The translations under genes were made by a program, and so were the position numbers. Shown here one piece after another: positions 3,601-64,000 of a DNA stretch of 64,000 bases; position 1 is the first letter of the stretch, and each line of letters opens with the position of its first letter. The stretch is from a virus (lineage: Duplodnaviria; Caudoviricetes). The stretch covers positions 19,340 to 83,339 of the IMG/VR virus record IMGVR_UViG_3300025018_002598; one strand, 5' to 3'. The notes under the pieces were generated by a model that did not search any database, was not told the DNA's origin, and saw nothing but the letters and a program-made list of their open reading frames with translations.

Positions 3601-6600
3601 GTGACTGGAATAGAGTTCGTCCTGAAGGAACAAAAGAAGATCGTTATGTTCAAGAAATTGAACTAGATCGTCAACGTCCTACTGATTATGGTTCCGAAAG
3701 AGCTTCTTCTGGAGCGGCTAAGGCAGAAGGACAGCACTCAGGTACTCAAGAGAGTCAGTTACAAATGTCTCTCAACTATGGTTCTGAGAGATGGATTGAC
3801 GACGCAGCTCCTTGTGATTATTTACCTACTACTGAAGGTCAGTTTTCTGGTAAGGACCGCAAAGGAAAGGCTGTTGATGAAGTTTACGAAGGTCAACTTA
3901 CTGGACATAGACAAGGAAATGATTCTGAAGTTTCTTCAGAATCATTTCCTCACACAGCAAGTGTAGAAGATTATATTGCTGGTAAAGTTGTTACAGCAAT
4001 TAAGAATGGTCTTACTAACCTTGTAATGGAACATGGTATATCTCCAAAAACAATTGTGAATTCAAAAATTGATTCCAAGAAAATTGCTTCTGGAAATAGA
4101 AATAAAATTTTAAAGAAAGCACAACTTGCACAGGTTGATGTTCAGAATCTTGCAGAAAATGAAATTATAGACCAAATTGGTCCTAACATGGATTTGGCAG
4201 AAGATTATTTAGATGATGCAATTGTTGTATTGTTTGAAGATCCTGCCGAACTTGAAGCGGAACTTAGAAATTATACAAAAGAAAGACTTGCTAAGATTCA
4301 AGAAGTTTCTGATAAAGAAGATTCTGATGAAACTGTAGAGTCTAAGAGAAGAAAAGCTCTTAAAGAAAAGGCTTTCAAGAGAAACGCAAATCGTGTCTCT
4401 ATGCCTGTTGATGCTCAGAAATTAACAGAACTTTTCCCAGGAGTAAGTGACTTCACTGGTCTTGATGCTAAATTAGTTAAGCAGAAATTCCTTCAGTCTC
4501 AACCTGGTGCAAAACTTCTTGATTTCCGTAAAGTTGACGGTGGATTTGTTGCTGAAGTAGAACTTCCAGAACAGTCTGGTGAAGAAAGTGGAAATTCCAT
4601 TAATTCAAATGGTGTTCCATCTCCTTCAATTCCTTCCAACAATGCTCCTTCTCACGATTCTCAATCTGCTCAGTCTGCTCAGTCCGATCAGTCTGTAGAA
4701 TCAACAGTCGAAGTTGCTGCCGAAACAGTTGATAAACTTAAAGCTTTTGCAAAGCAGAAGAAAGAAGCACAGTCTCCTGCTGGAACAACAATGCCTCCTC
4801 CTCAAGGTGGTGCCGCTGGTGGTGGCGCTGCTGGAGACCCAATGGGTGGCGGTGGTGCTCAAGATTTATTTGGGAACACTCCTGAAGGCGCTGGCGATGT
4901 CATTGATGAAACAGAGGATGATATGGAAGATGAAGTTGGAGAAGCTAAACCATTTGGTTCTTTCAACCCATTTACCGGAAATGAAAACGTAGATGTTGTA
5001 GATGGACACTATAGAGATTCTGATACAGGTCTTGAATGGGAAGTTCAGATGAACATCAATGTTCTTAATCCAGAAAAAATTGATGATATTCAGTTTAAAG
5101 AAAATACAGATGCCGACTCAGAACTTACTGAAGGCGAAGATATTAATGAAGAAATTGCTGGTCAGCCTAACGCTGCTCCAATGGGAGCACCTGCTGGTGG
5201 TGGCGCTGCTGCCGATCCAATGGGAATGGGTGCAGGTCCAATGGCGTCATATCCTGGCTGGGTAAAAGATGCTCCATTGAAACTTGCAATGAAAGCTTCT
5301 CCAGAATATTTCTTGAATGAAAAAATGAAAAGTGATCTTAATATCAAGACAGCCTCTAAGCCAGTCGGTTCTATCTGTCCTCAGTGTGCTTCACACAAAG
5401 TGGCTTTCAGAAACTCCGAAGGTAATTGTGCTTCTTGCGGATGTAAGACATATGTTACTGCTAAAAAGAATAAGGCTGGAAGTCTTGATGTAGATCTTTA
5501 TATGCTTCCAAACCTTAAGAGAGCGGAAAAAGAAAACCGTTTTGGTGGACACGCAGTTACTGCGAATGTTGAAAACAAAGAAGTTGTAGAAAAAGCAATT
5601 CATCAGATTTTATCTGATAGAAGAGCTTTAGTAAAAGCAGCTTCTATATTAGAAAAAGATCCAATGCTTGCATGTATCAGCGAACAGTCTGTTCGTGGAT
5701 TCGACTCAGAAGATTCGATTCAGATTTGTGCTTCCATTAAATCATATCTCACAAAACAAGCTCAATTTGAAGAAGAGGATGACGAAGAAGATGATAATTC
5801 AGAAGAAACTTCATCTCCAACAGTACATGATTCTGACTCAGAAGTAACTGATAGTGTTGAGTTTGAAGATGAAATTGATGAAAGTGGAGATTCCGAAGGT
5901 CTTGAAGAAGTTGAAGAAGAGTCAGATACAGTTGAAGATACTGACGATTCCGATCTTGAAGAAGTATTTGAAGATGAGTCTGGTGAAGAAGGTGACGACT
6001 TTAGTTTAAATCTTCAGTTCACTGATTCTGATGGTAAGTCTGGCAGCATTAACATTACAGAAGATGGTGTTGATGTAAACGGAGATGTTTTTGAAGGTGC
6101 GGAATCTACTGATGATTTCGGTTCAGACATCGCAGAAGACGGCGAAGAAATGTTTGAAGACGAAATGGGTGAAGAAGCTCCTGAAGAAATTGAAATTACA
6201 GAAATCGTTGAAACAGAAGATGACGATCCATCTTCCTTGGACGGACTATTCTCTTCCTCTGTAGATAAACTCGATAGAGAAACAGAAGAATCCGAAGGTC
6301 CAAGTGAAGAATCTGAAGATGAATTTGACGTAATGGCAAATTCACTTAACACTTCTGAACTTCTTAGAGGTTCAAGAGTAGCTTCTTCAAATAGAAGCGG
6401 TGGTTCTTCTCTAGACCTTGGCTTCTTGAAAGCAGCTCTTCAGTCAGTTCCAACTGATACTGGAGCGGACGTTCCTAGAAGTGAAGAGCATGGTGTTCGT
6501 GACGAAGGTGGAAATGTTCATACAACTAAAAATGAAAATTCCGCAAAAAAAAGAAATTCTATTGCCGACACTTCTTTTAATGAAAAGGGAGTAGCTAATG

Positions 6601-7358
6601 GATCAGACAGAGGAGTTGAACAAATCAAACCTCAAACTGGAAAACATGCTGGATCTGCTGACGATTTTATTGTGACAGCGGGTGAAGACAATAAAGAAAA
6701 AGGCAAAAGAAAAGATGTTTGCCCAGACGACTTCGCTGATAAGCAATGTCCAGGAAAGGGTAAAGATAAATCAAACAAGCCTTACAAGGGTGGTGAGAAA
6801 GTAGAATCTTGTAATGCTGGTTCAGAAAAGAAGAAGGTTCAAGCTCAAACAGCACCTACTCAGCAATTAGAGCCAGTTGACGCAATTGAAGAAGGAAAAG
6901 AAGAGTCTAATGGAGAGAAGTTTGACATTCCAAGAGATAAATCTAAATCAAATCCTGAAATCAATGTAAAGCGTAAAGATGTTACTAGCCCTACAAAGGT
7001 AAGAAATAGTGATTATGGCTTTGGTCAGAAAGCTAAAGATCTTCATACAGAAGTAGTTCCTAGAGACTCCTCTGGTGATGGACTTGGCGGACCTTCTACT
7101 ACATTTGAAGATGAAGTAGCAGAGAATAGAACTTCTGGAAGTCCTGATACATATGTTCAGGAATATCAAAAGCAGAATCAGATCAAGCCAACTCCAGCAG
7201 GTAATGCAGAAAATCACGCCACAGCATCTAAAGAAGTTTGTATTAAGATAGCAAAAGCAAATGACTTAAATGCTAATAGATTAGAAGCAATTAACTTTGG
7301 TTCATTCTATGTTGTTCGTGACCTAGATTCTGGAAGAACATTTAAATATTCAGAATAA
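675..7358 (+). CDS. Prohead protease / scaffold-like polyprotein (2227 aa) with intein
   Basis: The N-terminal domain has phage prohead-protease-like motifs (NDNGDFF, FTNH, GKV, VSMG followed by CxxC...CxH). An intein occupies aa 206-574, followed by low-complexity, Zn-ribbon (CPQC...CASC) and acidic segments. It lies upstream of the scaffold and MCP genes. Confidence 0.8.
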   Translation: MFLKYAKLQILNVASFNKDFEKKSSMEDVVLYSPKTAFIKHDISENLIMAKNALDIVSELEQRDPEEWIVFRSRAIDAGGSEETGEIWHGANDNGDFFSEEELLKSYSSTEDGKEIKSFETFINCPIFTNHQNTDIEKARGKVINAFYDKDNHCVYTDALVDAKAYPELARGIREGYISDVSMGASVKFSDCSICNHRATNEKEYCVVPGTYIETENHTIKPIEDIEIGDKVLTQDGTYQSVLDIHEREIEDEIFEIYASGNNVPLEITGNHEVLTIPKMSYRMTFEQYIQRNDLKPVYKRTDELNIGDFVLYPKENLRKSENPLKSLRFARLLGLFISEGNLFRNKKGEINALEFHLSLEEKDLLEDLLNLIKEFAVREAKVYKKTSTYHIRIWDKDLAEKVVSLCGHGARTKSLSKEIINASGEFKINLLGGIIDGDGWVDPKDYRSVIVTSSDNLSYQIKKISQDLGFSCSIYKTLNTQNETVKYSSGEPNTINHVRFGSHATSIIKQGKCKKLEKLNCQEFEKATSSWIFDNYHVSKIRKISKKYYSGTVMNLAVENNENYIANGMIVHNCSHVKNHKGKKLGGKEVYEINHGIKFIELSAVTDGACDNCTIQNSYTGMEFLDKLKNMISASHSNAVALKKVAMFKGSAGDDIDKLNKSLDLLKGVAETILNSKDVDFEFLEDIGQLLAELQSLIVDLVEAGFANQNPAGETQGEGTQQQAADALTGGEEVPANQGAPPTGDNQSQGLMSPTSPVSLGGKEQNIKTANLLEGLKTQVPEIKKILASINNLKNQITFDGDEEMATSKNIKRKLASNRISEKFSEILESQVSNNEPAIISDGPYSVKIDFNKGIQGFVGNNRVIAMTVEEVGDDLLGLAKVNPSVIGGRLIEKLASKYDENGEVKMSKQAKDLNIKEAFIENPPPVEQVQEGQLEDLSGNFDRKNHPELAEGQIGATTQKQLENVPKSKETGKGDWNRVRPEGTKEDRYVQEIELDRQRPTDYGSERASSGAAKAEGQHSGTQESQLQMSLNYGSERWIDDAAPCDYLPTTEGQFSGKDRKGKAVDEVYEGQLTGHRQGNDSEVSSESFPHTASVEDYIAGKVVTAIKNGLTNLVMEHGISPKTIVNSKIDSKKIASGNRNKILKKAQLAQVDVQNLAENEIIDQIGPNMDLAEDYLDDAIVVLFEDPAELEAELRNYTKERLAKIQEVSDKEDSDETVESKRRKALKEKAFKRNANRVSMPVDAQKLTELFPGVSDFTGLDAKLVKQKFLQSQPGAKLLDFRKVDGGFVAEVELPEQSGEESGNSINSNGVPSPSIPSNNAPSHDSQSAQSAQSDQSVESTVEVAAETVDKLKAFAKQKKEAQSPAGTTMPPPQGGAAGGGAAGDPMGGGGAQDLFGNTPEGAGDVIDETEDDMEDEVGEAKPFGSFNPFTGNENVDVVDGHYRDSDTGLEWEVQMNINVLNPEKIDDIQFKENTDADSELTEGEDINEEIAGQPNAAPMGAPAGGGAAADPMGMGAGPMASYPGWVKDAPLKLAMKASPEYFLNEKMKSDLNIKTASKPVGSICPQCASHKVAFRNSEGNCASCGCKTYVTAKKNKAGSLDVDLYMLPNLKRAEKENRFGGHAVTANVENKEVVEKAIHQILSDRRALVKAASILEKDPMLACISEQSVRGFDSEDSIQICASIKSYLTKQAQFEEEDDEEDDNSEETSSPTVHDSDSEVTDSVEFEDEIDESGDSEGLEEVEEESDTVEDTDDSDLEEVFEDESGEEGDDFSLNLQFTDSDGKSGSINITEDGVDVNGDVFEGAESTDDFGSDIAEDGEEMFEDEMGEEAPEEIEITEIVETEDDDPSSLDGLFSSSVDKLDRETEESEGPSEESEDEFDVMANSLNTSELLRGSRVASSNRSGGSSLDLGFLKAALQSVPTDTGADVPRSEEHGVRDEGGNVHTTKNENSAKKRNSIADTSFNEKGVANGSDRGVEQIKPQTGKHAGSADDFIVTAGEDNKEKGKRKDVCPDDFADKQCPGKGKDKSNKPYKGGEKVESCNAGSEKKKVQAQTAPTQQLEPVDAIEEGKEESNGEKFDIPRDKSKSNPEINVKRKDVTSPTKVRNSDYGFGQKAKDLHTEVVPRDSSGDGLGGPSTTFEDEVAENRTSGSPDTYVQEYQKQNQIKPTPAGNAENHATASKEVCIKIAKANDLNANRLEAINFGSFYVVRDLDSGRTFKYSE
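1290..2396 (+). mobile_element. Intein (369 aa) with LAGLIDADG homing endonuclease in prohead protease
   Basis: Starts CVVPGT..IEDIEIGDKVLT (block A/B) and ends YIANGMIVHN followed by Cys. LAGLIDADG-like motifs LLGLFISEG and LLGGIIDGDG. Confidence 0.93.
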
Positions 7359-7513: not shown

Positions 7514-8833
7514 ATGAGGAGTATAGGAATGAATAAAACACAATTATTTTCAGATGGAACCTTTATCACAGCTTCCGATTCTGGTGAAATAAAAAAGGCT
7601 ACAAAGAATGAAGTCGTAGCATTTTTATCTTCACAGTTTCCGGCATCAAAAAGTGGTGCTGAGTTAGAGGGTGTGAGATTCGACAGTGAGTCTGGTTATG
7701 CATATGCAAGATATGCAAATCAAAAAGTTTTCAAGAAGAGAATAGCTCAATCGGCTCCAGTAAATCAAAGTGAGCCTGTTGATTCTTGCGACAGAACTCA
7801 GGAACATGGTGGAAAGAGTGAAAAATTCGACACACCAAGAAATGAGTCTAAATCAAAGCCAGAAAAGTCTGACAGAAAGGATGTTGATAATCCTACAAAA
7901 ATTAGAAATAAGAATTATGAACCTGGAAAAGATAATGTTCATACTGATGAGGTTCCTTGCAGTAAGAGCAATTCGGGTCTAAAGGGCAGTAAGGGAACTA
8001 CTTTTGATGAAGAGAAGTCTCATACTCAAAAAAGTGGAAACCCAGATTCATATGTTCAAGATTTTTCCTCTTCAGAAAAGCCAACTCCAGCAGGTAAAGA
8101 AGGAAACCACGCAGTAGCTAATACAGAAGGTGTTCAAATTAAAAGTTCGTCAGATATGTATGGTTATGAATCTGTAATGGGTGGCAAAGACGAAGATAAA
8201 GAAGGCAAAGGCTTTCCTTTCTTCGGAAAAGGGGACGATGAAGATAAAGAAGACAAAGAAGATAAAGAAGACAAAGAAGATAAAACAGAAAAAGGCGCAG
8301 ACAAAACCGAGAAATCTTCCAAAGATGATAAAAAGGAAGAAGGCGAGAAAAAAGAAAGTAAGGCGGAAAGCCAACTTAGTATAAAGGTATCTGAACTTCA
8401 AGGCAACCTATCTAAGTTAAGTAAAGAACTAGACAAAGGACGTATTCGTGAAGCCCGTCGCAATGCAGCCGTCAAGCTAGTCTTGGCAAAGCGAGACAGA
8501 AATCCAGAGAAGTTCCTTGATGGGGAAGTTTTCTTGGAAGAAGTTAACAAGATCGCAAAGAAAATGAGTGTAGAAGCAATCGAAACAGCAATTGAAGAAA
8601 TCGGTATTATTAGATTACAAGAAGTAGAAAATTCGAAAGCGATCAAAGAAGCTGCTGCTGAACTAAAAGCAGAACCAAACAGAGCAGGCTTAATGCAAAG
8701 CCTTGTTGTCCCACAGGACAATTATAAATTTGCAAGCAAGTCAAATGAATCAAATCTATCAGAAGTTCTGATGGCACATACCAAATTTGGTAAAGATGTA
8801 GAAAAAATGAGAAAGTACCATGAGGAAAATTAA
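7514..8833 (+). CDS. Scaffold-like head protein (439 aa)
   Basis: Lies between the protease and MCP genes, with a charged EDK-repeat linker and a C-terminal coiled-coil-like region. Shares a domain of about 125 aa with the C-terminus of the 2227-aa protein. Confidence 0.6.
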   Translation: MRSIGMNKTQLFSDGTFITASDSGEIKKATKNEVVAFLSSQFPASKSGAELEGVRFDSESGYAYARYANQKVFKKRIAQSAPVNQSEPVDSCDRTQEHGGKSEKFDTPRNESKSKPEKSDRKDVDNPTKIRNKNYEPGKDNVHTDEVPCSKSNSGLKGSKGTTFDEEKSHTQKSGNPDSYVQDFSSSEKPTPAGKEGNHAVANTEGVQIKSSSDMYGYESVMGGKDEDKEGKGFPFFGKGDDEDKEDKEDKEDKEDKTEKGADKTEKSSKDDKKEEGEKKESKAESQLSIKVSELQGNLSKLSKELDKGRIREARRNAAVKLVLAKRDRNPEKFLDGEVFLEEVNKIAKKMSVEAIETAIEEIGIIRLQEVENSKAIKEAAAELKAEPNRAGLMQSLVVPQDNYKFASKSNESNLSEVLMAHTKFGKDVEKMRKYHEEN

Positions 8834-8866
8834 AATGTTTCTCGCTAAATTCGGAGGAAAAAAATT

Positions 8867-9484
8867 ATGTTAATTCCTATTTTTCGTGTAATAGCATCTC
8901 AGTTCCCAGTAGATACACTTACTGGCAATGTTGAGATGGGAATGGCTGTGGGTCTAGTAGAAAATTCTGCTGGAAACGTAGTTATTCGTAAGTCCGACGA
9001 CAACGCTGCTGCGAATACAGCTCAAAACGTCGTTGGAATCGCAGGTGACAGAAAGCGTGCTTCTGAAGCCTATGAGTGGACCAATCGTGTCTCTGACATG
9101 GGTGATGATACTTCTGCCAGCGGTCTTATGACTGTTTATCATGGCGGTGGTGAATTCTGGTTCGACGTTGATGATGGTAACATCACAACTCCACTAAATG
9201 AGTCTACAATTCGTGGACCTATTTCCAGTGCGGCAACAATTACAGTTGGTGGATATCTTTATGTAGCTGACTCTTCTCAATCAAATGAGGAATCTGGTCA
9301 GTTCCATAACTCTGAAAGTACAGCAATCGTTCGCTCCGGCGAAGGTGTTCCTGTCCTTCAGGTTGTTTCTAAGGCATCCAGCATTGAATCCGGTATTCCA
9401 GGTGAATACGAACCAGGTTCTAGCGTGAACTACCCTGATCCATCCGTTCCTAGAACATGGGTTAGAGCAAGAGTTCTAGTCTAA
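8867..9484 (+). CDS. Probable capsid decoration/cementing protein
   Basis: 205-aa beta-rich protein immediately upstream of the MCP, with a GGAGG RBS. Assignment rests on synteny only. Confidence 0.5.
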   Translation: MLIPIFRVIASQFPVDTLTGNVEMGMAVGLVENSAGNVVIRKSDDNAAANTAQNVVGIAGDRKRASEAYEWTNRVSDMGDDTSASGLMTVYHGGGEFWFDVDDGNITTPLNESTIRGPISSAATITVGGYLYVADSSQSNEESGQFHNSESTAIVRSGEGVPVLQVVSKASSIESGIPGEYEPGSSVNYPDPSVPRTWVRARVLV

Positions 9485-9525
9485 TAGCTTGTGTATAGCA
9501 AATTCTTATATAGGGAGACACTAAA

Positions 9526-10392
9526 ATGAGTTTAATCAAGAATACAGCTAATGATGCAGAAAAAGAGTTGCTTATCGCACAGGCTCTTGAAACACCAGAA
9601 GGTCGTGTGGCTTTGGCCCAGGCTATGGTGGAGCCTATCAAGCGAGCACTTGAGTATCAAGCAATCGGTAGAAAGCTTCTAATGGTGGATGAACTTCCAC
9701 AGGGAGCGTTGGCAAGATACGAGAAGGACGTAGCGTCTACAGCTTATGTTGTTTCAAGACGTGGTGGCGTCCGTGACCGTATCGTTGAAGGCGAAGAAGT
9801 GTTGGTTCCAACATTTGAAATCGCAACAAATCCTCAGATTCGTTTGAGTGAAATTAAAGCACGTAGATTTTATATCGTTGACCGTGCGCAGATGAAAGCT
9901 AAAGAAGCTATTCAGAAGCAAGAAGATACCGAAATTCTCGGTGATATTAATGCTGCTGTTCGTTCTGACCAGACTGTAACTCAGTCCGGTGACTTGAGCA
10001 TCGCTTCTCTTAACTATGCTTTCTCTACAATTGAGTCTCACGACTTAACTGTAGCTAAGATCGTTATGCACCCACAGCAGTATGCTGACATCCGTTTGTT
10101 CGGACGTGACGTGTTTGACGAAGCAACAAGACGTGACGTACTTATGTCTGGTCTCTTCGGACACCTTTGGACATCCGACATTCACGTTTCACACAGAGTA
10201 CCACCAGGTTCCGTTTACTTACTAGCTCCGGCTGAGTATGTAGGTGCTATTCCAGTAAGACAGGACATTACTGTTCTTCCTGCTGACGATCCTAAGAACT
10301 TGAGACTTGGATGGGTTATCTTTGAAGAAATCGGTATTGTTGTTATCAACGACTACGCAATCGCAAAGATTAATCTCACAGCAACTAGCTAA
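9526..10392 (+). CDS. Major capsid protein (HK97-fold type, 288 aa)
   Basis: Follows the protease, scaffold and decoration genes, has strongly biased high-expression codon usage, and is followed by a strong terminator. Size and C-terminal beta-strand pattern fit an HK97-type MCP. Confidence 0.85.
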   Translation: MSLIKNTANDAEKELLIAQALETPEGRVALAQAMVEPIKRALEYQAIGRKLLMVDELPQGALARYEKDVASTAYVVSRRGGVRDRIVEGEEVLVPTFEIATNPQIRLSEIKARRFYIVDRAQMKAKEAIQKQEDTEILGDINAAVRSDQTVTQSGDLSIASLNYAFSTIESHDLTVAKIVMHPQQYADIRLFGRDVFDEATRRDVLMSGLFGHLWTSDIHVSHRVPPGSVYLLAPAEYVGAIPVRQDITVLPADDPKNLRLGWVIFEEIGIVVINDYAIAKINLTATS

Positions 10393-10420
10393 TCAGTAGT
10401 TGACAACCACAAACCCAATG

Positions 10421-10450
10421 GGGGCGGGCCGAAAGGCTCGCCCCTTTCTT
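10421..10450 (+). terminator. Intrinsic terminator after MCP
   Basis: GGGGCGGGCC-GAAA-GGCTCGCCCC (10-bp stem, GNRA loop) followed by TTTCTT. Confidence 0.9.
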
Positions 10451-11533: not shown

Positions 11534-11713
11534 ATGGAAAGAAAAGAAAAAATAAAACTTACGTATGAAATGAGGAACAGAACGGGGCTTTCAATGATTA
11601 TTTGCTATAGAGAGTTAGAGGCGAATGATTGGGATATAGAAAAGGCCAGTAAATGTTATAGGGATCGCACTCTCCGTGAAAAGAGTAAAAGAGGAGATTT
11701 CATCACATGGTAA
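11534..11713 (+). CDS. 59-aa protein resembling the EF-Ts N-terminal (UBA-like) domain
   Basis: My translation is MERKEKIKLTYEMRNRTGLSMIICYRELEANDWDIEKASKCYR..., which follows the EF-Ts pattern VKELRERTGAGMMDCKKALxEANGDIEKA. It is below the ORF-track length cutoff. Confidence 0.7.
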   Translation: MERKEKIKLTYEMRNRTGLSMIICYRELEANDWDIEKASKCYRDRTLREKSKRGDFITW

Positions 11714-12009
11714 CAAAGGATGTTCTTCTGCTAAGTTTATTACAATGGGGAAATCGTCAACTAAGTAGAGTAAACAATCCTCATAGATTTTTAGTCGTAA
11801 TACCTAACGATTTCAATAAAAATGAAATTTTAGAATTTACCAATTCTTACATTCAAGAAACAAGTCAAAAATATTTTATATTAATAAAAGAAAATGAAAT
11901 AAAAGGTAAATATGATATTCATGGACATTCTTGCAATGTTGTATTTTATAAGACTTCTAAATTTGAAGACTTAGAATATGCTAAAAATATTTTTATTCCA
12001 ATGAACTAG
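11707..12009 (+). CDS. Hypothetical protein
   Basis: 100-aa ORF overlapping the previous stop, in a co-directional small-ORF island. Confidence 0.55.
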   Translation: MVTKDVLLLSLLQWGNRQLSRVNNPHRFLVVIPNDFNKNEILEFTNSYIQETSQKYFILIKENEIKGKYDIHGHSCNVVFYKTSKFEDLEYAKNIFIPMN

Positions 12010-12044
12010 GCATGAAGATCTTAATTTTGTAGAGGTACTTTAAA

Positions 12045-12491
12045 GTGGACAAAAAGAAAAGCGTTTGTTGGAATATAGATCTTACTCAAAAACCAATTGA
12101 GCCTAATGAGAAAAGATTAAAAATCAATAAGGCAAAATTTGAATACGAAGGAAAACAATATGAATTCGAAGTTTTAGATGTCGTTCATCTTGGAACTTTA
12201 CCAGAGTGGCAGTTTTCAGATAGAATGTTAGAAACTTGTGGTTTGACTCTATGTATTGTTTTTGATTCGTATTCAAACAACTTTAACGATACGAATTTAG
12301 GTTTGTCAAAAAAGACTTTTACTCTTTGGTTGAGCGGCGATGGAATTTCTTTTCCCGTAGAAGTTCATGGAGGGAATTATAATCGAAAAGATAATCCAGT
12401 TGCAGGTCCAGGAAAATCCTATGATTATGGATATGAAGTAGATACTGATTGTTTTTTTGCATGTTCTTCTCCATGCTATTTCAAGAAATAA
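12045..12491 (+). CDS. Hypothetical protein
   Basis: 148-aa ORF with GTG start and GAGG RBS. Confidence 0.65.
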   Translation: MDKKKSVCWNIDLTQKPIEPNEKRLKINKAKFEYEGKQYEFEVLDVVHLGTLPEWQFSDRMLETCGLTLCIVFDSYSNNFNDTNLGLSKKTFTLWLSGDGISFPVEVHGGNYNRKDNPVAGPGKSYDYGYEVDTDCFFACSSPCYFKK

Positions 12492-12503
12492 AAAGGATTA
12501 TAA

Positions 12504-12830
12504 ATGGACAAATTAGATCAAATAAAAAAAGAATTAAAATATTTAGAATTTGCAAAACATTGTTCTAATGAAAATTTTCCAGCCTATGATCTTTTTGTTA
12601 ATTATTTCTGCGACAGAGATCCTTATAATTCAGATAATGCAAGAAAAGAGATTAGAGATTTAATTCATGAAAAACAAACTTTGATATTAGAAGAGGCCTT
12701 GAAGACCCCAGAGGGAAAAGAAGCCTTATCTAAATATTTTAAAGATGAAGAAGATAAGCGCCTAAAAGATGAAGAAAAAAAAGAAAGTAGTAGATTTTAT
12801 GCTCAGAGAAAAGGAATTGACCTACAATGA
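12504..12830 (+). CDS. Small protein carrying MCP N-terminal motif (ALKTPEGKEAL)
   Basis: LILEEALKTPEGKEAL versus MCP 15-30 LLIAQALETPEGRVAL. Confidence 0.7.
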   Translation: MDKLDQIKKELKYLEFAKHCSNENFPAYDLFVNYFCDRDPYNSDNARKEIRDLIHEKQTLILEEALKTPEGKEALSKYFKDEEDKRLKDEEKKESSRFYAQRKGIDLQ

Positions 12831-12988
12831 TTGATGAAAATGTATTAGATGTTTTTCTAAAAGAAAGAGAAATAAAATCTAAAGAAATGTCCGAAAGAAG
12901 AAAAAAAGAAAGAGTGGTATCCAGCCCATCTCCCATTGCTAATGATAGAGTTAAGGGAAGATTTCCCACTTCAAAAGATGTTGAATAA
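12827..12988 (+). CDS. 53-aa hypothetical protein
   Basis: The ATG overlaps the upstream stop (ATGA). Translation: MIDENVLDVFLKEREIKSKEMSERRKKERVVSSPSPIANDRVKGRFPTSKDVE. Confidence 0.5.
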   Translation: MIDENVLDVFLKEREIKSKEMSERRKKERVVSSPSPIANDRVKGRFPTSKDVE

Positions 12989-13205
12989 AAAATATTCAGA
13001 TTTAACTTCAAGATATTACTGTCCAAATTGTGGCAATAAATTAAAGTATGAAAATTCAGAAGAGGCATTAAGGGAATATAAAGAAGTTGAAGTAAAGTTA
13101 AATGAATACCTTAAACTTCATCATCCTCTTAAAATACGCAGTGATCAAGAATCCTATGAAACGCCAAGGGGCGACGACTCCTTTGCTATATCTTTTGTAG
13201 ATTAA
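12978..13205 (+). CDS. Small CxxC (Zn-ribbon-like) protein
   Basis: Contains YYCPNCG. The ORF track start at 12936 is TTG; the ATG at 12978 is more plausible. Confidence 0.55.
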   Translation: MLNKKYSDLTSRYYCPNCGNKLKYENSEEALREYKEVEVKLNEYLKLHHPLKIRSDQESYETPRGDDSFAISFVD

Positions 13206-13217
13206 GGAAATGTATAA

Positions 13218-13715
13218 ATGGAAGTTATAAAAAAAACAGTTTATAAAACTTCTGACGGAAGAGTTTTTCTAGATATAAATAAGGCAAATTCTCATGAAGA
13301 AACAATAAAACTAATGAAAAGGGATGCGAAAGTCAAAGACTTAGAAAAAAAAGTTAAAGATCTCTTTCCCATTTCGAAAAAAGTCAACTGTGAACAAGAC
13401 AAAGAACTTATGGAATTAACAAAGAAGATTCCTAGTTATTTAGAATATCGAATAGATTTGTATTGTGAATTCACTGGAATTCCTCTAAGGGTATACTCTA
13501 CTAAATTCCATGACAGTGGACATCAGTATGAAAAAAGCTATTCAGAAGATATAGATAGAATTTTAGATAGACCGCATACAATCTTAAGGTTGGGTAACGT
13601 GGTTAGGACATATTCTAAAGAATCTTATAAAAAAGACATTGTTCCTATTTTAGAGAAAAACCATCTAGTCATAAAGAAATATTTGTTTGAGTTCTATACT
13701 GGAGTGTTGAAATGA
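13218..13715 (+). CDS. Hypothetical protein
   Basis: 165-aa ORF with AAGGA RBS. The N-terminal VYKTSDGRVF motif is common in phage small proteins. Confidence 0.65.
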   Translation: MEVIKKTVYKTSDGRVFLDINKANSHEETIKLMKRDAKVKDLEKKVKDLFPISKKVNCEQDKELMELTKKIPSYLEYRIDLYCEFTGIPLRVYSTKFHDSGHQYEKSYSEDIDRILDRPHTILRLGNVVRTYSKESYKKDIVPILEKNHLVIKKYLFEFYTGVLK

Positions 13716-13906
13716 AAAAAGAAGATAAATACGTAGGCGCCATTCCAGTAAGACAGGACATTACTGTGCTTCCAGCAGATAAAGAAGAAGGATTGAAGTT
13801 AGGATGGATAATTTATGAAGAACTTGGCCCAATCCATTTTGCTGAAGTTTTCTGGAAAGATTTTTCTGATGAAGACAAGATAAAGAAAATCAACGAATAT
13901 AGATGA
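13712..13906 (+). CDS. 64-aa protein carrying MCP residues 238-270
   Basis: YVGAIPVRQDITVLPAD (17 aa) is identical to the MCP, followed by LKLGWIIYEELG versus LRLGWVIFEEIG. Confidence 0.85.
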   Translation: MKKEDKYVGAIPVRQDITVLPADKEEGLKLGWIIYEELGPIHFAEVFWKDFSDEDKIKKINEYR

Positions 13907-13912
13907 GACGAA

Positions 13913-14155
13913 ATGAAGCATATAATCAGAAAAGAATTATATGAAACGAAAGAATATACTATTGAAGAAATTCACGAAGAATTATATGAAACGAAAGAAT
14001 ATACTATTGAAGAAATTCACGAAGAATTAAATCGAAGATTAGAGGCGACAAAAGAAAAGGACTTGCCGAGATATTTATCTTACAATAAAGATAAGTTTGA
14101 GTATGATGAAGATGGAAAAATAATAAAAGTAATTAGTTTGAGAGAAGAGGTTTGA
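13913..14155 (+). CDS. Hypothetical protein with 15-aa tandem duplication
   Basis: ELYETKEYTIEEIHE occurs twice. Confidence 0.55.
   Translation: MKHIIRKELYETKEYTIEEIHEELYETKEYTIEEIHEELNRRLEATKEKDLPRYLSYNKDKFEYDEDGKIIKVISLREEV
13932..14029 (+). repeat. Perfect 45-bp tandem repeat (about 2.2 copies)
   Basis: AAGAATTATATGAAACGAAAGAATATACTATTGAAGAAATTCACG at 13932-13976 and 13977-14021, plus a partial third copy. Confidence 0.95.
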
Positions 14156-14601
14156 TTGTGCCAACTTATCCTATAGAATTAGATAGAGGAATTTTTGAAA
14201 TTGCCGTCTCTGATTATGTCGAAAAAAAGATGGATAAAATTGATTTTATTCGCAATTATGTGGTGAGAAGTTTAGAGAATGAAGTGAAAGGAAAAATAGT
14301 AAGAATCTTGTCTGCTCATTTCCACCAAGATCCTATGATGCGTCAAAACATATATAGAATAGAAGTAGATTACATCCATGAAGAAAGATATGGAGATCAT
14401 CTTGGTTCTGTATTTTCTCAGTTATTAGAGAATGGAAGTTATAGAAATCCAGAATATGATGAGCTTAGATTTGAACAACAATATTTTGTGGACTTTCTAC
14501 CTACGACTCCCGTACTAAAGCCTTCGAAAGAAAAAGTAAAAAAAGAAATTACATATACCAAAATAGATTTAGATGATTTTAAATTCATGGAAGTTGAATA
14601 G
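14152..14601 (+). CDS. Hypothetical protein
   Basis: 149-aa ORF whose TTG start overlaps the upstream stop. Confidence 0.6.
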   Translation: MIVPTYPIELDRGIFEIAVSDYVEKKMDKIDFIRNYVVRSLENEVKGKIVRILSAHFHQDPMMRQNIYRIEVDYIHEERYGDHLGSVFSQLLENGSYRNPEYDELRFEQQYFVDFLPTTPVLKPSKEKVKKEITYTKIDLDDFKFMEVE

Positions 14602-14615
14602 GAAAGGAAAAAATA

Positions 14616-15248
14616 ATGGGAATGTATACTGTTGTAATTCACCCTGAAACAAAAGAAGAGATTCAGATAAAGTGTGGTGGAGATTGGTGTGATAAATATG
14701 AAGTGGGAGATGAAGTCCCATTCAAAATACATCCTGATTGTTCTATGATGGCAGATTTTGCTGATGGGATCTATGTTGGGCTTGGCGAAAGAAATGATTT
14801 CAAAAGTTTCAACAGTTACTATGTTGTAATTTGTGAAGGGAAGATTGCAGAGGTTTCCGAAAAATATCACTCTATGGATTCTAGGGCTGGTTATGAAAGA
14901 GAAGAACTTTACAATAAATATAAAGATCGTTTTATAGAACTTGAAAAGTCTTGGTGGAGTGATGAGGCTTGGAAAAAAGACGAAGAACTAAAGAAAGAAC
15001 TTGAGATTAAAAGGAAAGAATATTTAGATAGACATCATCCTAATTATGAAAAATATAGTGATGAAGAGAAATTTACAGCCAATGTAGTACATGCAATGTC
15101 TGCTTCTAGGCTCAATTACCAAGAGATTGGTAAAAAACTTATGTCCATACAAGAACTACCTCAAGGTGCTTTGGCTAGATATGAAAAAGACGTTGCCAGT
15201 GTTCATCATGTTGTAGGGAAGAGGGAAGAAAATGAAAATAAGAATTGA
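14616..15248 (+). CDS. 210-aa protein ending in a copy of MCP residues about 42-79
   Basis: LNYQEIGKKLMSIQELPQGALARYEKDVASVHHVVGKR versus MCP LEYQAIGRKLLMVDELPQGALARYEKDVASTAYVVSRR. Confidence 0.85.
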   Translation: MGMYTVVIHPETKEEIQIKCGGDWCDKYEVGDEVPFKIHPDCSMMADFADGIYVGLGERNDFKSFNSYYVVICEGKIAEVSEKYHSMDSRAGYEREELYNKYKDRFIELEKSWWSDEAWKKDEELKKELEIKRKEYLDRHHPNYEKYSDEEKFTANVVHAMSASRLNYQEIGKKLMSIQELPQGALARYEKDVASVHHVVGKREENENKN

Positions 15249-15429
15249 AATGTGGGAAGATTTTGCATATTCCCTTGGAGAATTGAAAAACGAAACTACA
15301 TCCTTTTGTGCGATTGCTGAAGTCACTGAAGAAGAACATAAAGAGATGCAAAGAATAATGAAAGATTACTATAGTTTACAGGAAAGATTAACAGATCTTT
15401 ATTCAAAATACGAAAAGGAAAAAAAATGA
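15232..15429 (+). CDS. Small hypothetical protein
   Basis: 65-aa ORF coupled to its neighbours. Confidence 0.55.
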   Translation: MKIRIEMWEDFAYSLGELKNETTSFCAIAEVTEEEHKEMQRIMKDYYSLQERLTDLYSKYEKEKK

Positions 15430-15881
15430 GTTTAGAATCAGATAAAAAAAACGAAGAGTTAATTCAATTGGCATTAGAGACAGGAGCGGGAAAGCGAGCA
15501 ATACAAGAGGCTCTTGGCGGATATGAAATGTTTAAAAGAAACTTAGATGATAAGAATAAAAACCTTGTCGAAAGATTAAATGAATCATATTCTAAAATAG
15601 AAAATCAATATGAAGAAATGGGCGACAAAGAGTATATAATTCCATTCGGAGTGAAATGTCTGGTGGAAGCGAGAGACTTTCTATTAAAACATCAGGCTTG
15701 GGAAGCGAAAATGTTGGAAACAGATGAATGCTGGGAAGACTCATTACCAAAATTAAATCAAGAACTATATGATGAATCTTTAGATATTCAGGGAAATAGA
15801 AACCACCTATTAAGTCGTATTGAAATGCAATTAAATATTATAATTAAAAAGAATGAGGAGAAACAAAATGCCAAGTCTTGA
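15426..15881 (+). CDS. 151-aa protein starting with MCP N-terminal-like motif
   Basis: EELIQLALETGAGKRAIQEAL versus MCP 14-34 ELLIAQALETPEGRVALAQAM. Confidence 0.65.
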   Translation: MSLESDKKNEELIQLALETGAGKRAIQEALGGYEMFKRNLDDKNKNLVERLNESYSKIENQYEEMGDKEYIIPFGVKCLVEARDFLLKHQAWEAKMLETDECWEDSLPKLNQELYDESLDIQGNRNHLLSRIEMQLNIIIKKNEEKQNAKS

Positions 15882-16369: not shown

Positions 16370-17572
16370 TCAACCTTGAATTGTTTTTTTTAAGTATTCT
16401 AAATACTTTTTACTAATATTATCCCAACTGTTATCATTACAGAATTTCTTCTGTTTTTCAATTACTTCATTGTAAAATTTTTCATCAGAAAAATACCTAT
16501 CTATAATCTTAGCAATTCCCTCTGGATTATCAGAAGAAGGAACTCCTATTGATTTTAAGTCGTCAAATAGGTGACACTCTCCAACAACAAGGGGAAGTCC
16601 AAAAGACATTGCTATCTTAGAGGCTCCAGAAGATCCTCTAACATCATGATCGGGATGTGTTTTGTAAGGAAGAACACAAACCTTATTTGTCTTAAGAGAC
16701 TCTGCCAAACCTTCGTCACTAATGAAACCTCTTACAATCCCTACATTATCATCGATCTCCAACTCTTCGACTATTTTCTTTAGTTTGTTATAGTATTCAT
16801 CATGGATATTTATATTGTTTTTATTCTCAGAAAAGAAACATGTAAGGTATATTTCTGGATACTTTTCAATCAGTATTTTTATAGATCTTATTGTTGATTC
16901 GAAATTCTTATAGGGAAAACCAAAACCATATTGAATGACAGTATGTTCTGTTTGATATAGATTCCAGTTCTTATCTAAATTCATTTCTGGACAACCATGA
17001 TGAATGACTTCGATAGAATTTGTATATCCCTTTTTTATCAAAAGTTCTTTTGCTTCTTCTGTATGCACAATTACATTTCTCAAAGGGCTTTCACAAAGAA
17101 ACTTATCTTTATGTTCATATACTGAATGCAATGCAACAACATATGGATAGTCTTGAATGAATGTCAATAAGTTATACCAATGAACAACGGTTGGAAATAT
17201 ACCGTATTCATGTTGAACTAATATGGCATCAGGATTAAACTGTTTAATCTCTTTCTTTAGATTTTTGATGGATTCTCTTCTTCTCCAGCAATAAACTACT
17301 TCTATGTCTTTGTAATTTTCTTTAGATGTTTCTGAATCGTTTTTTGTTTTATACTCTGAAAAAATCCTGATATTCTTATTTGTCTTTAGCATAGAGTCAA
17401 CTAGGAATTTAGAATACGTGCTAATTCCACATGACTGGTCCCAATTTGTAATCAAGGCAACTTTGAAATCCTTAAGAGATTTCATTTCTGATGAGTTTTG
17501 AAAGTTCATTGTATTCTCCTGTTCTTTCGAGAAACTGATTAACCTTTTCAGAACGTTCATATTGGACCTCAT
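16370..17572 (-). CDS. Glycosyltransferase, GT-B / GT4 family
   Basis: CGISTYS, ILVQHEYGIF, VEVIHHG, YGFGFPYKNFE and AMSFGLPLV motifs. The true start is probably 17509 or 17485. Confidence 0.85.
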   Translation of the reverse strand: MRSNMNVLKRLISFSKEQENTMNFQNSSEMKSLKDFKVALITNWDQSCGISTYSKFLVDSMLKTNKNIRIFSEYKTKNDSETSKENYKDIEVVYCWRRRESIKNLKKEIKQFNPDAILVQHEYGIFPTVVHWYNLLTFIQDYPYVVALHSVYEHKDKFLCESPLRNVIVHTEEAKELLIKKGYTNSIEVIHHGCPEMNLDKNWNLYQTEHTVIQYGFGFPYKNFESTIRSIKILIEKYPEIYLTCFFSENKNNINIHDEYYNKLKKIVEELEIDDNVGIVRGFISDEGLAESLKTNKVCVLPYKTHPDHDVRGSSGASKIAMSFGLPLVVGECHLFDDLKSIGVPSSDNPEGIAKIIDRYFSDEKFYNEVIEKQKKFCNDNSWDNISKKYLEYLKKTIQG

Positions 17573-18407
17573 TTAAGGATGTCAATATTTTATTTTTACT
17601 AAATTCATAATAATCAATATATGGAATTTCAAAATCTTTGCAAAATCTTTTTAGTTTTGAATGAAATCCTATACATATCGTTGGAATGTTATAGATTATA
17701 CCTAAGACCATTCCATGATATCTCATTGAAATCAAATATTTTGAGTTTTCAATTCTATTGATTATTTCATCTTCATTAGTAACTTCATCGAATTTTCTAT
17801 TTAAAGAATAACTGTTAATATTATGGTAAACATGAGAGTCATTGTGTTGACGTGTTCTTTGTAAAGGGTAAAAGCTTGTAGGTTTTTTGTATTCATCTAA
17901 GAATCTTGAGGTCTCTACACAAAATCTTTGATATTCTTGAAATTTAGATATACTAGAATTATTTCTAGGGACTACATTGGAGTTTGGAATGAAAATAAGA
18001 TCGGTTGGATTTCTTTTTCCATTCAAAACATAAGGTGGATTGAGAAAATTGATGTCTGGTAAAAGAATTACATTATCATGTTCTTCCTTTACAATATCAT
18101 AACTTTCAGAATCTCTTAATATTACTCTTTTTGAATTTGCTAAGAATTTTTTTTCATTAGCATGTGACAATGAGATAGACCAGAATTCAAATGGTCTATC
18201 TACATGCTTTAATACATCTGCCAATTCTCGGTGAAGAATATTTCCTCCACCAACAATAAGGTATTTGTATTTTTGTTCGCTTACTTTTTTTAAATCGAAA
18301 CTAAATTCTAATCTAAGACCATAGAAAAGTTTTTGAAAGGTTTGTTTAAACCATTCATCACCATAATTTCCCTGATTATACCAGCCATAAAAAAGAATGT
18401 CTGTCAT
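17472..18407 (-). CDS. Polysaccharide pyruvyltransferase-family protein
   Basis: GWYNQGNYGDE, LIVGGGN, ILRDSES, LLPD and ISMRYHGMVLG motifs. Confidence 0.85.
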   Translation of the reverse strand: MTDILFYGWYNQGNYGDEWFKQTFQKLFYGLRLEFSFDLKKVSEQKYKYLIVGGGNILHRELADVLKHVDRPFEFWSISLSHANEKKFLANSKRVILRDSESYDIVKEEHDNVILLPDINFLNPPYVLNGKRNPTDLIFIPNSNVVPRNNSSISKFQEYQRFCVETSRFLDEYKKPTSFYPLQRTRQHNDSHVYHNINSYSLNRKFDEVTNEDEIINRIENSKYLISMRYHGMVLGIIYNIPTICIGFHSKLKRFCKDFEIPYIDYYEFSKNKILTSLNEVQYERSEKVNQFLERTGEYNELSKLIRNEIS

Positions 18408-20829: not shown

Positions 20830-21348
20830 ATGAATAACTCAATGAATATTAGACAAAATTCAATCTTGTTACTAAATAGAAATTTTCAGTTTCTAAACAT
20901 AATAAGTCTAAAAACATTTTTAAGACTTTGGTCAGTCAATAAAATTGAAGTCGTGAAATTTACTGACAAAGAATGGGTTCTTCATCCTAGAATTAAGATG
21001 AAATACCCTTCTGTTGCCGTAATGAAATATATGGTAAAGGCTCCTTATCGTGATATAAAATTATCACGTGAATCAATAATAAGGAGAGATGGTTGTGTGT
21101 GTCAATACACTGGTAAGAAACTAAAAAGGTCTGAGGTTGAAATCGATCACGTCATTCCGAGATCTCGTGGCGGAATGAACACTTGGGAAAACCTTGTTGT
21201 ATCAAGTAGAAAGTCTAACAATACAAAAGGTAATAGAACGCCTGAAGAAGCGGGAATGAAATTGATAAGGAAGCCACGTAAGCCCCATTTACATGAGATC
21301 CTTCAGGATTTTGATCGTGATGATTGGAGAGAATTTCTAGGATATTAA
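20830..21348 (+). CDS. HNH endonuclease (McrA-like, with LLLNxxF N-terminus)
   Basis: IIRRDGCVCQYTG..EIDHVIPRSRGGMNTWENLV..N..KGNRTP. Confidence 0.9.
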   Translation: MNNSMNIRQNSILLLNRNFQFLNIISLKTFLRLWSVNKIEVVKFTDKEWVLHPRIKMKYPSVAVMKYMVKAPYRDIKLSRESIIRRDGCVCQYTGKKLKRSEVEIDHVIPRSRGGMNTWENLVVSSRKSNNTKGNRTPEEAGMKLIRKPRKPHLHEILQDFDRDDWREFLGY

Positions 21349-27533: not shown

Positions 27534-28511
27534 TTACATCAATACTTCGAAATAATTAAGACCCAAAGCAAATTCAAAATTATAATCATATCCATATCCG
27601 TATGTTGTACTATAGCCGTAACCATAACCGAAATTAATTCCATATGATTGAAGACTAAAGGTTTGAGCTAAAACTATTTTAACCAAAACAGGTAATTGAG
27701 TTTTTGCATATTCCAACATTTGAGATTCTTCTGGAGTTAAAGTGATGTTAGTGTCCAATTCAAAATAAGAAGAATATGGAGCTAAAGTTCCCTCTGTCAA
27801 AGAATCTGATACTAGATTTAGTGAAATCTTTATAAATTCTGTAGTGAAAATACTCATTGTTTGAAGCAACAAAGCTCTAACAAAAGGGCTAGGGGGTCCA
27901 CCTGCAATTTCATCATCGGCCCCAACATCAGACCAAGAACCTACTTTTAAGGCATTTATCAAATCAATTACAGAATCTTGCTGACTTCGAATGTTTGTTA
28001 AATTGTTTACCTGAGAAGTTAAAACAGTCACCATAGCCATTTTAATTGCATCGGTAATATATGGATCGAAAGAAAGATTCTTGATTAATATAATCGCCTT
28101 TTTCCAATATTCTGATCCCTTACTGACTAATTCTATTTTATCCATTGAATCTTTTGCGAAGAAAGGTGTTGGAGATTCTGGTTCGATAGGTCTAATTGGT
28201 GGAGTTGGTTGCTCTCCTCTAGTCTCTACATCGGCGTCAATCCAAATACTTAATTCGTTGACATAAATATCTAATTCTGCATTATAAATCGCAAGATCGA
28301 TTTCGTAATTACTAAAATCTTCTTGATATTGTGCCATTCGACTATTAAAGTCATTAACCAAAAAAGATCTTTCAATTAGAGAGAGCTTATGTTGTGCCAA
28401 AACTCCAAGAGAAATCGCATAAGTAACTCTATCTGAAAGTTCAGTGAGATTGCCTTCGAAAACGGGTTGTCCATAATAACGTTCTATATTCATTTTTTTG
28501 ACCTCAATCAA
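27534..28511 (-). CDS. Hypothetical protein with Tyr-Gly-rich C-terminus
   Basis: FGYGYGYSTTYGYGYDY; located in the tail-fibre operon. Confidence 0.6.
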   Translation of the reverse strand: MIEVKKMNIERYYGQPVFEGNLTELSDRVTYAISLGVLAQHKLSLIERSFLVNDFNSRMAQYQEDFSNYEIDLAIYNAELDIYVNELSIWIDADVETRGEQPTPPIRPIEPESPTPFFAKDSMDKIELVSKGSEYWKKAIILIKNLSFDPYITDAIKMAMVTVLTSQVNNLTNIRSQQDSVIDLINALKVGSWSDVGADDEIAGGPPSPFVRALLLQTMSIFTTEFIKISLNLVSDSLTEGTLAPYSSYFELDTNITLTPEESQMLEYAKTQLPVLVKIVLAQTFSLQSYGINFGYGYGYSTTYGYGYDYNFEFALGLNYFEVLM

Positions 28512-61718: not shown

Positions 61719-61783
61719 GATTAACTCCTAAGTCATATTTTTTTATAGTTTTTTCTGTGTCTGGGATTGTCAAGTTATAGATT

Positions 61784-61890
61784 ACCGTTCTGTGAAACTT
61801 ACAAAAATCTACAAAAGATTCTCTGTTCACTTTCTGCTTCATCAAGATAGCAAATAATATTAATAAATTGATATTATTTGACTTACATTC
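61784..61890. repeat. 107-bp direct repeat, copy 1
   Basis: 61784-61856 is identical to 63894-63966 (73 bp), and TATTTGACTTACATTC at 61875-61890 matches 63985-64000. Confidence 0.95.
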
Positions 61891-62022
61891 TCTCCACAGA
61901 CTTTAATTTCCGTAGAACTTACGGTATTTTTCTGACTTTTACTACAAAATTTTAAACAAATATTTTATTCTTGGTTATCGAATTTAGTATTTATTTTTAT
62001 ATTTTTGTAGATTTTCAGTCAA

Positions 62023-63659: not shown

Positions 63660-63860
63660 TTTCTGGGATTAGAGTATGTACAAAAAATAATCCGTAACTT
63701 TGGGAAGTATGCTGGCTGGTGTCAACCGACACAAATCCCTTGGCTACGGATTATCTTATTGCCAAGATTTTTGTGGCTGGATAAATAAGTGAATCTGGGA
63801 GTGATCGTTACAAGAGATAACCTAGATTCTCCGACCCAACCGAAGGCACGGATTAATTGT
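63660..63860 (-). ncRNA. Candidate structured RNA (Y RNA-like or regulatory leader) upstream of Ro60
   Basis: Perfect 10-bp helix ATAATCCGTA/TACGGATTAT (63687-96 / 63745-54), inner hairpin GTGTC/GACAC, and a second related unit with a GAATCT/AGATTC stem. Confidence 0.5.
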
Positions 63861-63893
63861 TGAAACTTCAGATAAAAAATGAGATTAGATAAA

Positions 63894-64000
63894 ACCGTTC
63901 TGTGAAACTTACAAAAATCTACAAAAGATTCTCTGTTCACTTTCTGCTTCATCAAGATAGCAAATAGTTTCAATTTATTTAAACTATTTGACTTACATTC
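63894..64000. repeat. 107-bp direct repeat, copy 2 (runs to window end)
   Basis: See copy 1; the offset is 2110 bp. Confidence 0.95.

Follow-up and report, generated by a model that had tools for sequence, protein, structure and literature searches.

Why would a tailed phage carry, a few kilobases beyond the gene for its major capsid protein (MCP), a second and very short gene that consists largely of one slice of that same protein? The question arises in a virus of the Caudoviricetes (IMG/VR record IMGVR_UViG_3300025018_002598), within a 64,000-nucleotide (nt) stretch, hereafter the window, that comprises bases 19340-83339 of the 83,339-bp record (~95% complete; 34% GC). The resident MCP is a 288-residue protein encoded on the plus strand at 9526-10392; it has the HK97 fold and is assigned to the phage G gp27 family by its matches to phrog_2522 (E 2.7e-70) and, when a profile of 29 of its relatives was used, to PDB entry 6WKK (E 3.7e-117), gp27 being the MCP of phage G (PMC12484599). 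The element of interest is a plus-strand open reading frame (ORF) at 13712-13906, here called the mini-ORF, that encodes 64 amino acids (aa): a new leader of six residues, a hairpin derived from the MCP, and a tail that has diverged and is predicted to end in a helix. The reading that we favour, and of which we are about half persuaded, is that the mini-ORF is a maintained and selected accessory gene whose product would mimic the P-domain hairpin of the MCP, with a rewritten tip and a short helical tail.

The segment of the mini-ORF that is homologous to MCP residues 238-270 occupies 13730-13828, and the source-type segment, codons 238-270 of the MCP gene, lies on the same plus strand at 10237-10335. 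Residues 7-39 of the mini-protein align without gaps to MCP 238-270, with 25/33 residues identical, and in the first 17 aligned positions all 17 residues are identical despite seven synonymous codon differences, with no replacements. The initial annotation had described a 64-residue ORF with this content and with these counts; codon-by-codon comparison reproduced every one of them exactly, and the ORF with its MCP segment was also recovered by a tblastn search of the window with the MCP (E 1.4e-12) and by a hidden Markov model (HMM) of 81 MCPs run against the six-frame ORFs of the window (E 4.4e-15, profile positions 236-272). Moreover, the phrog_2522 profile matched the mini-protein (E 1.4e-5, profile positions 268-303), and a 50-nt core of the mini-ORF is 88% identical to 10237-10286. 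The match between the mini-ORF and the MCP is far beyond chance, and the sequence comparisons identify the mini-ORF as a derivative of an MCP of the phage G gp27 family. By the same comparisons it would be a derivative and not a member of that family, as only 33-50 C-terminal residues are represented in its 64 aa and the fold is incomplete. The annotated translational arrangement was likewise borne out: the ATG at 13712-13714 overlaps the TGA at 13713-13715 of an upstream 165-aa ORF (ATGA), and a Shine-Dalgarno-like GGAG at 13701-13704 (plus strand) stands 7 nt before the ATG. (Note that a frameshift fusion with the upstream ORF was ruled out, the frame of the mini-ORF being open for just seven codons before its ATG.)

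What part of the capsid protein has been copied? On the basis of HK97-fold topology and homology to 6WKK, we take MCP 238-270 to be the C-terminal hairpin of the P domain. In the HK97 topology the tip of this hairpin sits where capsomers meet, and its strands adjoin those leading into the E-loop. Both strands are kept in the mini-ORF and the four codons of the loop tip are rewritten. An AlphaFold2 model of the mini-protein is of low confidence (predicted local distance difference test score, pLDDT, of 58) and places strands at residues 13-21 and 32-40 and a helix at 54-63; it serves as a hint of a hairpin plus helix only, and the identity of the segment as a two-stranded hairpin is probably not firmer than fold homology and this model make it. 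(A model of the MCP built from 29 close relatives was poor, with a pLDDT of 54 and values below 50 in the E-loop and hairpin regions, and was used neither for mapping nor for fold searches.) In an alignment with MCP C-termini (A4) weak similarity runs on to the end of the MCP, which suggests that the whole mini-ORF may be composed of a short new leader, the last ~50 residues of an MCP and a ten-residue extension, with conservation decaying toward the tail.

The pattern of codon changes bears on whether the peptide is under selection. By the method of Nei and Gojobori, the 17-codon core has seven synonymous and no nonsynonymous differences (Sd 7, Nd 0) and a synonymous divergence (dS) of 0.9; over all 33 codons dS is 1.55 and nonsynonymous divergence (dN) is 0.20, and for the strand codons (238-254 together with 259-270) dN/dS is ~0.06. 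In the four loop-tip codons 10/12 nt differ, including those of a proline that is invariant in 29 aligned MCPs (alignment A1), and 16/18 of the family-invariant residues of the segment are kept in the mini-protein. The 51-nt core is 86% identical to the resident MCP gene, with an identical run of 26 nt, and at best 84% identical to any of 77 other MCPs (median 71%). This closeness would favour an origin in the resident lineage, or short-tract conversion with it, and if the core did originate there, then the silent changes arose at least partly on the branch of the mini-gene itself. A nucleotide donor search returned no close donor, the best match over 33 codons being 77% identical, and GC content at third codon positions (GC3) was 0.27-0.34 in MCP segments and pieces alike and did not discriminate origin. 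(A template/variable repeat of a diversity-generating retroelement was ruled out as the source of the differences: the seven core changes are T-to-C, T-to-G, T-to-A or C-to-T, all silent and at third positions, so that the mismatches in this 50-nt repeat are not adenine-specific; no search for a reverse transcriptase was made.)

The initial annotation had proposed a dedicated capsid-fragment peptide gene. That proposal stands insofar as the mini-ORF is intact, separately initiated, part of a coherent operon and nearly all MCP-derived, but the argument from silent changes is weakened by the invariance of the 17-residue block across 81 MCPs. Residues G240, A241, P243, R245, Q246, I248, T249, V250, P252 and D254 are invariant in alignment A1, and the copied block is the most invariant motif of the family, nearly unchanged across 80 related loci. 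Furthermore, silent sites are saturated among MCP orthologs: the MCP of one relative (L005) is 93% identical as protein and ~73% identical as DNA, and third-position identity in the segment has a median of 0.42 between MCPs and ranges from 0.4 to 0.58 between the mini-gene and any MCP. Because the copied block is invariant and MCP silent sites are saturated, the silent-only argument does not by itself show selection. Neutral drift on the branch of the mini-gene nevertheless requires this branch to be very short, since the core has a dS of 0.9 with no replacement, and a very short branch is argued against by the heavily changed loop and tail. Nor does uniform neutral decay fit, because the strands are frozen while the tip is rewritten. 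Taken together, the contrast between strand dN/dS and the loop, the core being nearest to the resident MCP, and an intact, coupled frame in AT-rich DNA would favour selection on the peptide.

If the mini-ORF is a gene in its own right, are there others like it? The suggestion that standalone ORFs of this kind occur in related phages fared unevenly: no orthologs were found, and analogous, non-orthologous hairpin ORFs were found among phages with the same MCP family. A search among near-length proteins (35-112 aa) in a collection of 5.8 billion proteins returned only the mini-protein query itself; tblastn and HMM searches within 10 kb on either side of 80 related MCP genes gave no equivalent of the mini-ORF and only one full MCP paralog; and in the five closest whole records the matches came only via their own MCP genes, with no ortholog of the mini-ORF. 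A search for short proteins containing the hairpin yielded mostly truncated MCP calls, together with clear chimeras on long contigs, and such non-orthologous hairpin chimeras are present on at least five other contigs of the phage group. P0087 (142 aa) has the hairpin at its N-terminus followed by a read-through tail; P0054 (98 aa) joins a chimeric N-terminal part to a hairpin piece that reaches approximately the MCP C-terminus; P0090 (111 aa) joins a fragment of the EF-Tu P-loop (Pfam GTP_EFTU, E 4e-5) to MCP 241-286; and in P0091 (91 aa) the loop of the hairpin is enlarged by an insertion of 29 residues. P0087 occupies a position after the MCP gene of its contig, L097, as the mini-ORF does in the window, and is preceded by an HNH endonuclease gene and an Acb1/2',5'-ligase-like gene. 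Compared with its own MCP it has 25 synonymous and nine identical codons out of 48, a silent divergence like that between the mini-gene and its MCP. (Note that a selection test gains no power from the near-identical contigs, since identity within L097/98/99, L101/102 and L103/104 is 99.4-100%.)

A profile search of 47 further whole records added pieces in G017 (three), G012, G035 and G029, that in G029 being a much decayed 71-codon frame covering MCP 237-285. Of the ~17 pieces, all come from MCP 6-106 or 228-286 and none from 118-227, though 118-227 has many invariant residues; the pieces in small ORFs are thus the peripheral contact elements of the protein, the N-arm, the E-loop and the P-hairpin. 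Hairpin pieces all start at MCP 226-243, and no piece is a recent copy of the MCP resident in its genome. In each of three genomes (the window, L100 and L101) a hairpin ORF is accompanied by an E-loop ORF at a distance of 1.3-4 kb, and the pieces of L101 and L103 are located in early or replication regions, a long way from MCP genes. At MCP position 266, which is a near-invariant Tyr, P0054, P0087 and P0091 have His, a residue found there in 0/81 full MCPs and 0/84 other short MCP pieces; this would indicate either shared descent of the fragment genes or convergent change. When L103 and L104 (99.4% identical) are compared, a replaced block at 8811-9998 ends 3 nt before the start of P0091, so that a mosaic junction adjoins the fragment gene.

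Other arrangements of MCP pieces were encountered in the same phages. In L100, a 403-kb contig in which P0090 is encoded at 10001-10336, a second ORF at 14245-14697 contains MCP 10-78 followed by a second copy of MCP 6-44, and this ORF and its upstream neighbour have the same first ~12 residues. A 233-codon frame at 3508-4206 of L137 (G017, 476 kb) begins with a leader-like hydrophobic N-terminus and carries MCP pieces in scrambled order (~213-227, 49-106, 245-275), in which respect it would be like a permuted mini-capsid protein. In G004 (the record of L008), a degenerate E-loop-type match at 27831-27962 on the minus strand, just downstream of the MCP gene, is broken by two TAA stops and looks like a decayed fragment.

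The mini-ORF itself is embedded in an operon of 14 tightly packed small ORFs on the plus strand (11534-15881), each with a Shine-Dalgarno-like site and most separated by short gaps or joined by stop-start overlaps. A strong terminator-like hairpin (11 bp, 9 GC) at 10420-10445 on the plus strand closes the MCP transcription unit ahead of this accessory island; the operon starts ~1.1 kb beyond it, and the mini-ORF is its tenth ORF, 3.3 kb past the MCP stop. DNA of the closest relative gives no match to the region from ~10.4 to ~18.9 kb, and across the 83-kb genome partial copies were found of the MCP only and of no other gene. Two further ORFs of the island have weak likenesses to the MCP, neither of them significant alone: a 151-aa ORF (15426-15881, plus strand), whose N-terminus weakly resembles MCP 1-43 (HMM E 0.2) and whose first three codons are identical to those of the MCP, and a 108-aa ORF (12504-12830, plus strand) with a weak motif like that of the N-arm at MCP 12-32 (HMM E 0.8). 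No match to the MCP N-arm was seen for phrog_29458 and phrog_20721, the PHROG families to which these two ORFs are similar, and for that reason the ORFs are unproven as N-arm pieces. Outside the MCP pieces, the island ORFs share no similarity with one another or with the ORFs of L097 and L100. The first island ORF (59 aa, 11534-11713) has weak UBA-like/TAP_C Pfam matches (E 1e-3 to 5e-3) that fall under the curated thresholds, and an 80-aa ORF at 13913-14155 contains a perfect 45-nt tandem duplication (13932-14021), by which a 15-residue peptide is encoded twice.

A clearer companion of the mini-ORF is a 210-aa protein encoded at 14616-15248 (plus strand), the C-terminus of which (15111-15224) matches MCP 42-79; in the core of this match 16/16 aa are identical, with 12 silent codon changes. 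The protein represents a widespread viral family to which neither Pfam nor PHROG devotes an entry. An exhaustive HMMER search with it returned 179 clusters at E<=1e-3, mostly of viral proteins of 160-210 aa that aligned from residue 1 to ~180-200, and the C-termini of more than 100 of these clusters contain a diverged form of the MCP 36-60 motif. When 40 family members were compared with the MCP alignment by hhalign, MCP 29-73 was matched with a probability of 97.5% (E 6.5e-12), and the MCP profile on its own finds the tail in two distant members. The E-loop fragment in the window would, from these alignments, be an especially MCP-like copy of an old, family-wide module, and such a family-wide C-terminus implies that at least one class of MCP piece has been maintained over long times. 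Members of the family elsewhere are found among accessory or replication genes, not head genes. In addition, many small metagenomic proteins from the same search have a twin-arginine-type leader (RRxFLK-like) joined to a piece of the MCP N-arm or E-loop, which suggests possible export or membrane targeting of capsid pieces. (Examples are P0139, P0168, P0169, P0182, P0190, P0215 and P0221; P0139 has a weak match to Pfam TAT_signal.)

How might a detached capsid hairpin act? The peptide would keep the surfaces through which beta-sheets pair and would lose the tip that lies at capsomer junctions, and could thus be a competitive binder of whatever normally grips the MCP hairpin, able to pair with a partner and not to build shell contacts. 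The role that we prefer is that of a decoy or blocker in conflict, which might be directed against a host immune sensor of conserved MCP surfaces or against the shell of a rival phage or satellite. Bacterial receptors that sense the MCP, Avs7, Avs8 and Avs10, have been described (PMC13581612). We rank a role in conflict above one in the phage's own assembly because the closest relatives lack the gene, which is accessory, and we consider it the likelier because the operon is separate and lies past the MCP terminator, because the comparable island of L097 includes the Acb1-like gene, and because MCP-sensing receptors are documented. More broadly, phages of the phage G type, from 80 kb to >500 kb, may maintain a hidden class of capsid pieces, each a single contact element mounted on one of several carriers (twin-arginine leaders, an EF-Tu fragment, a widespread 180-aa domain) and each a mimic that diverts capsid-recognising factors; this generalization is tentative, and we would lean against it if pressed.

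Several points weigh against regarding the mini-ORF and its analogs as selected mimics. The silent-only pattern could have been inherited from the divergence of two full-length MCP genes, and recent capture from a diverged, unsampled MCP would produce it without selection. With no ortholog anywhere searched, conservation of the mini-ORF as a gene is unsupported; what was found is a small ORF, intact and composed for the most part of a single slice of the MCP, with analogous chimeras in place of orthologs under purifying selection, a low dN/dS that is confounded by the invariance of the motif, and no tag or tail common to sister fragment genes. Some pieces are clearly decaying, namely the G029 frame and the G004 piece with its two stops, and the non-MCP parts of the chimeras are mutually unrelated. 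What the known MCP sensors recognise is an extended, folded surface (PMC13581612), and a hairpin of 33 residues might fail to recreate it. Finally, a cytoplasmic decoy leaves unexplained the twin-arginine-type leaders on many of the N-arm and E-loop pieces.

Of the other explanations, the one with most to commend it, and one that we still judge unlikely, is that the mini-ORF is recombination debris: a leftover MCP 3' end that was displaced by a mobile cassette, through a homing endonuclease or recombination in the conserved 3' region of the MCP gene, or that arrived with the island from another phage, and that is open by chance and has no selected function. The mini-ORF is gene-terminal in character, running from MCP ~238 to the end with decaying similarity, and P0087, P0054, P0090 and the G029 frame also reach the MCP C-terminus or almost so; the shared start at MCP 226-243 suggests a common breakpoint; and the layout might be that of a displaced 3' end, with the mini-ORF on the same strand 3.3 kb downstream and its similarity plausibly extending to the MCP end; the 325-aa minus-strand ORF that intervenes between the MCP terminator and the 14-ORF run has no family match. 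The closest relative shows no synteny with the island, endonucleases are near at hand (a free-standing HNH gene at 20830-21348, phrog_16726, E 5e-26, a few kilobases beyond the island, and in L097 an HNH gene that lies right after the MCP gene, between it and P0087), head genes contain inteins, and nuclease genes mark exchange boundaries beside capsid genes in other phages (PMC10448857). The mosaic junction 3 nt before P0091, the decayed pieces of G029 and G004, and P0090 as a mosaic of unrelated gene fragments (EF-Tu P-loop and MCP) all point the same way. Debris does not, however, readily account for a core with no replacement at a dS of 0.9 beside a loop in which 10/12 nt have changed, or for a frame that is intact and translationally coupled; nor for pieces far from MCP genes in L101 and L103, the lack of any piece that is a young copy of the resident MCP, the recurrence of His266 in chimeras only, the pairing of hairpin and E-loop in three genomes, and the restriction of copies in the window genome to the MCP among its conserved genes.

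Two functional alternatives carry less weight with us. A role as an accessory in assembly of the phage's own head, in which the hairpin peptide, perhaps with the E-loop-bearing 210-aa protein, would dock on the MCP by strand pairing and serve as a cap, cement, regulator of size or timing, or procapsid tag, is in our estimation distinctly improbable. The island does adjoin the head module, the N-arm, E-loop and P-hairpin are the inter-subunit contact elements of HK97-type shells, and the 210-aa family with its MCP-like tail is widespread, but the mini-ORF is absent from the five closest relatives, one of which has a 93% identical MCP, and so is not needed; moreover, the strong terminator separates it from the MCP unit, and the 210-aa family resides elsewhere among accessory and replication genes. 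Least probable of all, and frankly speculative, is interference with other phages or satellites by a dominant-negative piece aimed at invariant contacts in the phage-G-type capsids of co-infecting relatives. One peptide could hit many relatives, since the copied motifs are invariant across the family, and at two variable positions the mini-protein has the family consensus (Tyr, Leu) and not the residues of the resident MCP (Phe, Ile); against this, the resident MCP has nearly all of the same residues, and self-poisoning would be hard to avoid.

The remainder of the window gives the setting of the locus. Upstream of the MCP gene, the gene order is a 2227-aa ORF (675-7358), which contains a head-maturation-protease domain with a LAGLIDADG intein inside (~residues 206-590), a 439-aa ORF (7514-8833), a 205-aa ORF and then the MCP gene. 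Residues 2056-2201 of the 2227-aa ORF are 45% identical to residues 81-222 of the 439-aa ORF, and the common segment is possibly a scaffold or capsid-targeting domain. No portal was recognised in the 2227-aa ORF, the portal gene was not located, and BLASTP gave no match between the 325-aa minus-strand ORF and the 2227-aa head ORF. Beyond the island, glycosyltransferase and pyruvyl-transferase genes occupy the minus strand at 16370-18407. Copies of a ~100-nt sequence near both record ends (window 61714-61903 and 63725-64000, and the first ~110 bases of the record), 85-100% identical when translated, may be related to terminal repeats.

How does the mini-ORF compare with known systems? Its residues 7-39 find their homologue in the C-terminal hairpin of the P domain of phage G gp27 (PDB 6WKK; phrog_2522), whereas its 64 aa stand against ~280-290 in that protein and include no N-arm, E-loop, spine helix or A-domain, which precludes service as a shell subunit; the loop tip, invariant among MCPs, is replaced as well. 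Full-length capsid paralogs are a second point of comparison. The T4 vertex protein gp24 is a full-length paralog of gp23, and the related record G040 contains a second MCP paralog of 358 aa; both resemble the present case as extra MCP-derived genes kept in the same genome, but such paralogs keep the whole fold and build shell, whereas the mini-gene keeps one hairpin. In T4, the Gol peptide of gp23 activates the Lit protease with EF-Tu. Gol, like the targets of Avs7, Avs8 and Avs10, exemplifies short or conserved MCP surfaces that are read by host immunity, which is the premise of a decoy; Gol is, however, a region inside the full MCP that triggers defence, whereas the mini-ORF is a separate gene and a proposed blocker, and no sequence relation was sought or seen. 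Bodo saltans virus has ORFs with ankyrin repeats in which fragments of essential viral genes are embedded, and these ORFs have been proposed to be decoys (Deeg et al. 2018, PMC5871332). There too, accessory ORFs in variable regions have acquired short pieces of conserved core genes, and the decoy idea was put forward untested; that system differs in being a eukaryotic giant virus with enzyme fragments and ankyrin repeats, as opposed to a tailed phage with a capsid piece and no repeat scaffold. By this comparison those ORFs would be the nearest published idea that we found.

Full-text searches of the literature yielded no description of phage mini-genes made from capsid fragments. Two aspects of these findings appear to be undescribed there: that small accessory proteins have again and again taken up pieces of one structural gene, in a large and for the most part uncultured group of phages, and that the C-terminal module of a widespread family of viral proteins is homologous to MCP 29-73. 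Even if the mini-gene is merely debris, it still shows that fragments of conserved genes seed new ORFs in the accessory islands of phages. Many bacterial immune receptors read conserved capsid surfaces, and how phages shield surfaces that they cannot mutate is an open question, to which a standalone phage copy of such a surface offers a candidate answer that can be tested directly. Capsid-derived restriction or decoy genes exist in animal-virus systems, and if phages of the phage G type do maintain a class of capsid pieces, these would be the phage counterpart of such genes and would represent a new principle of counter-defence.

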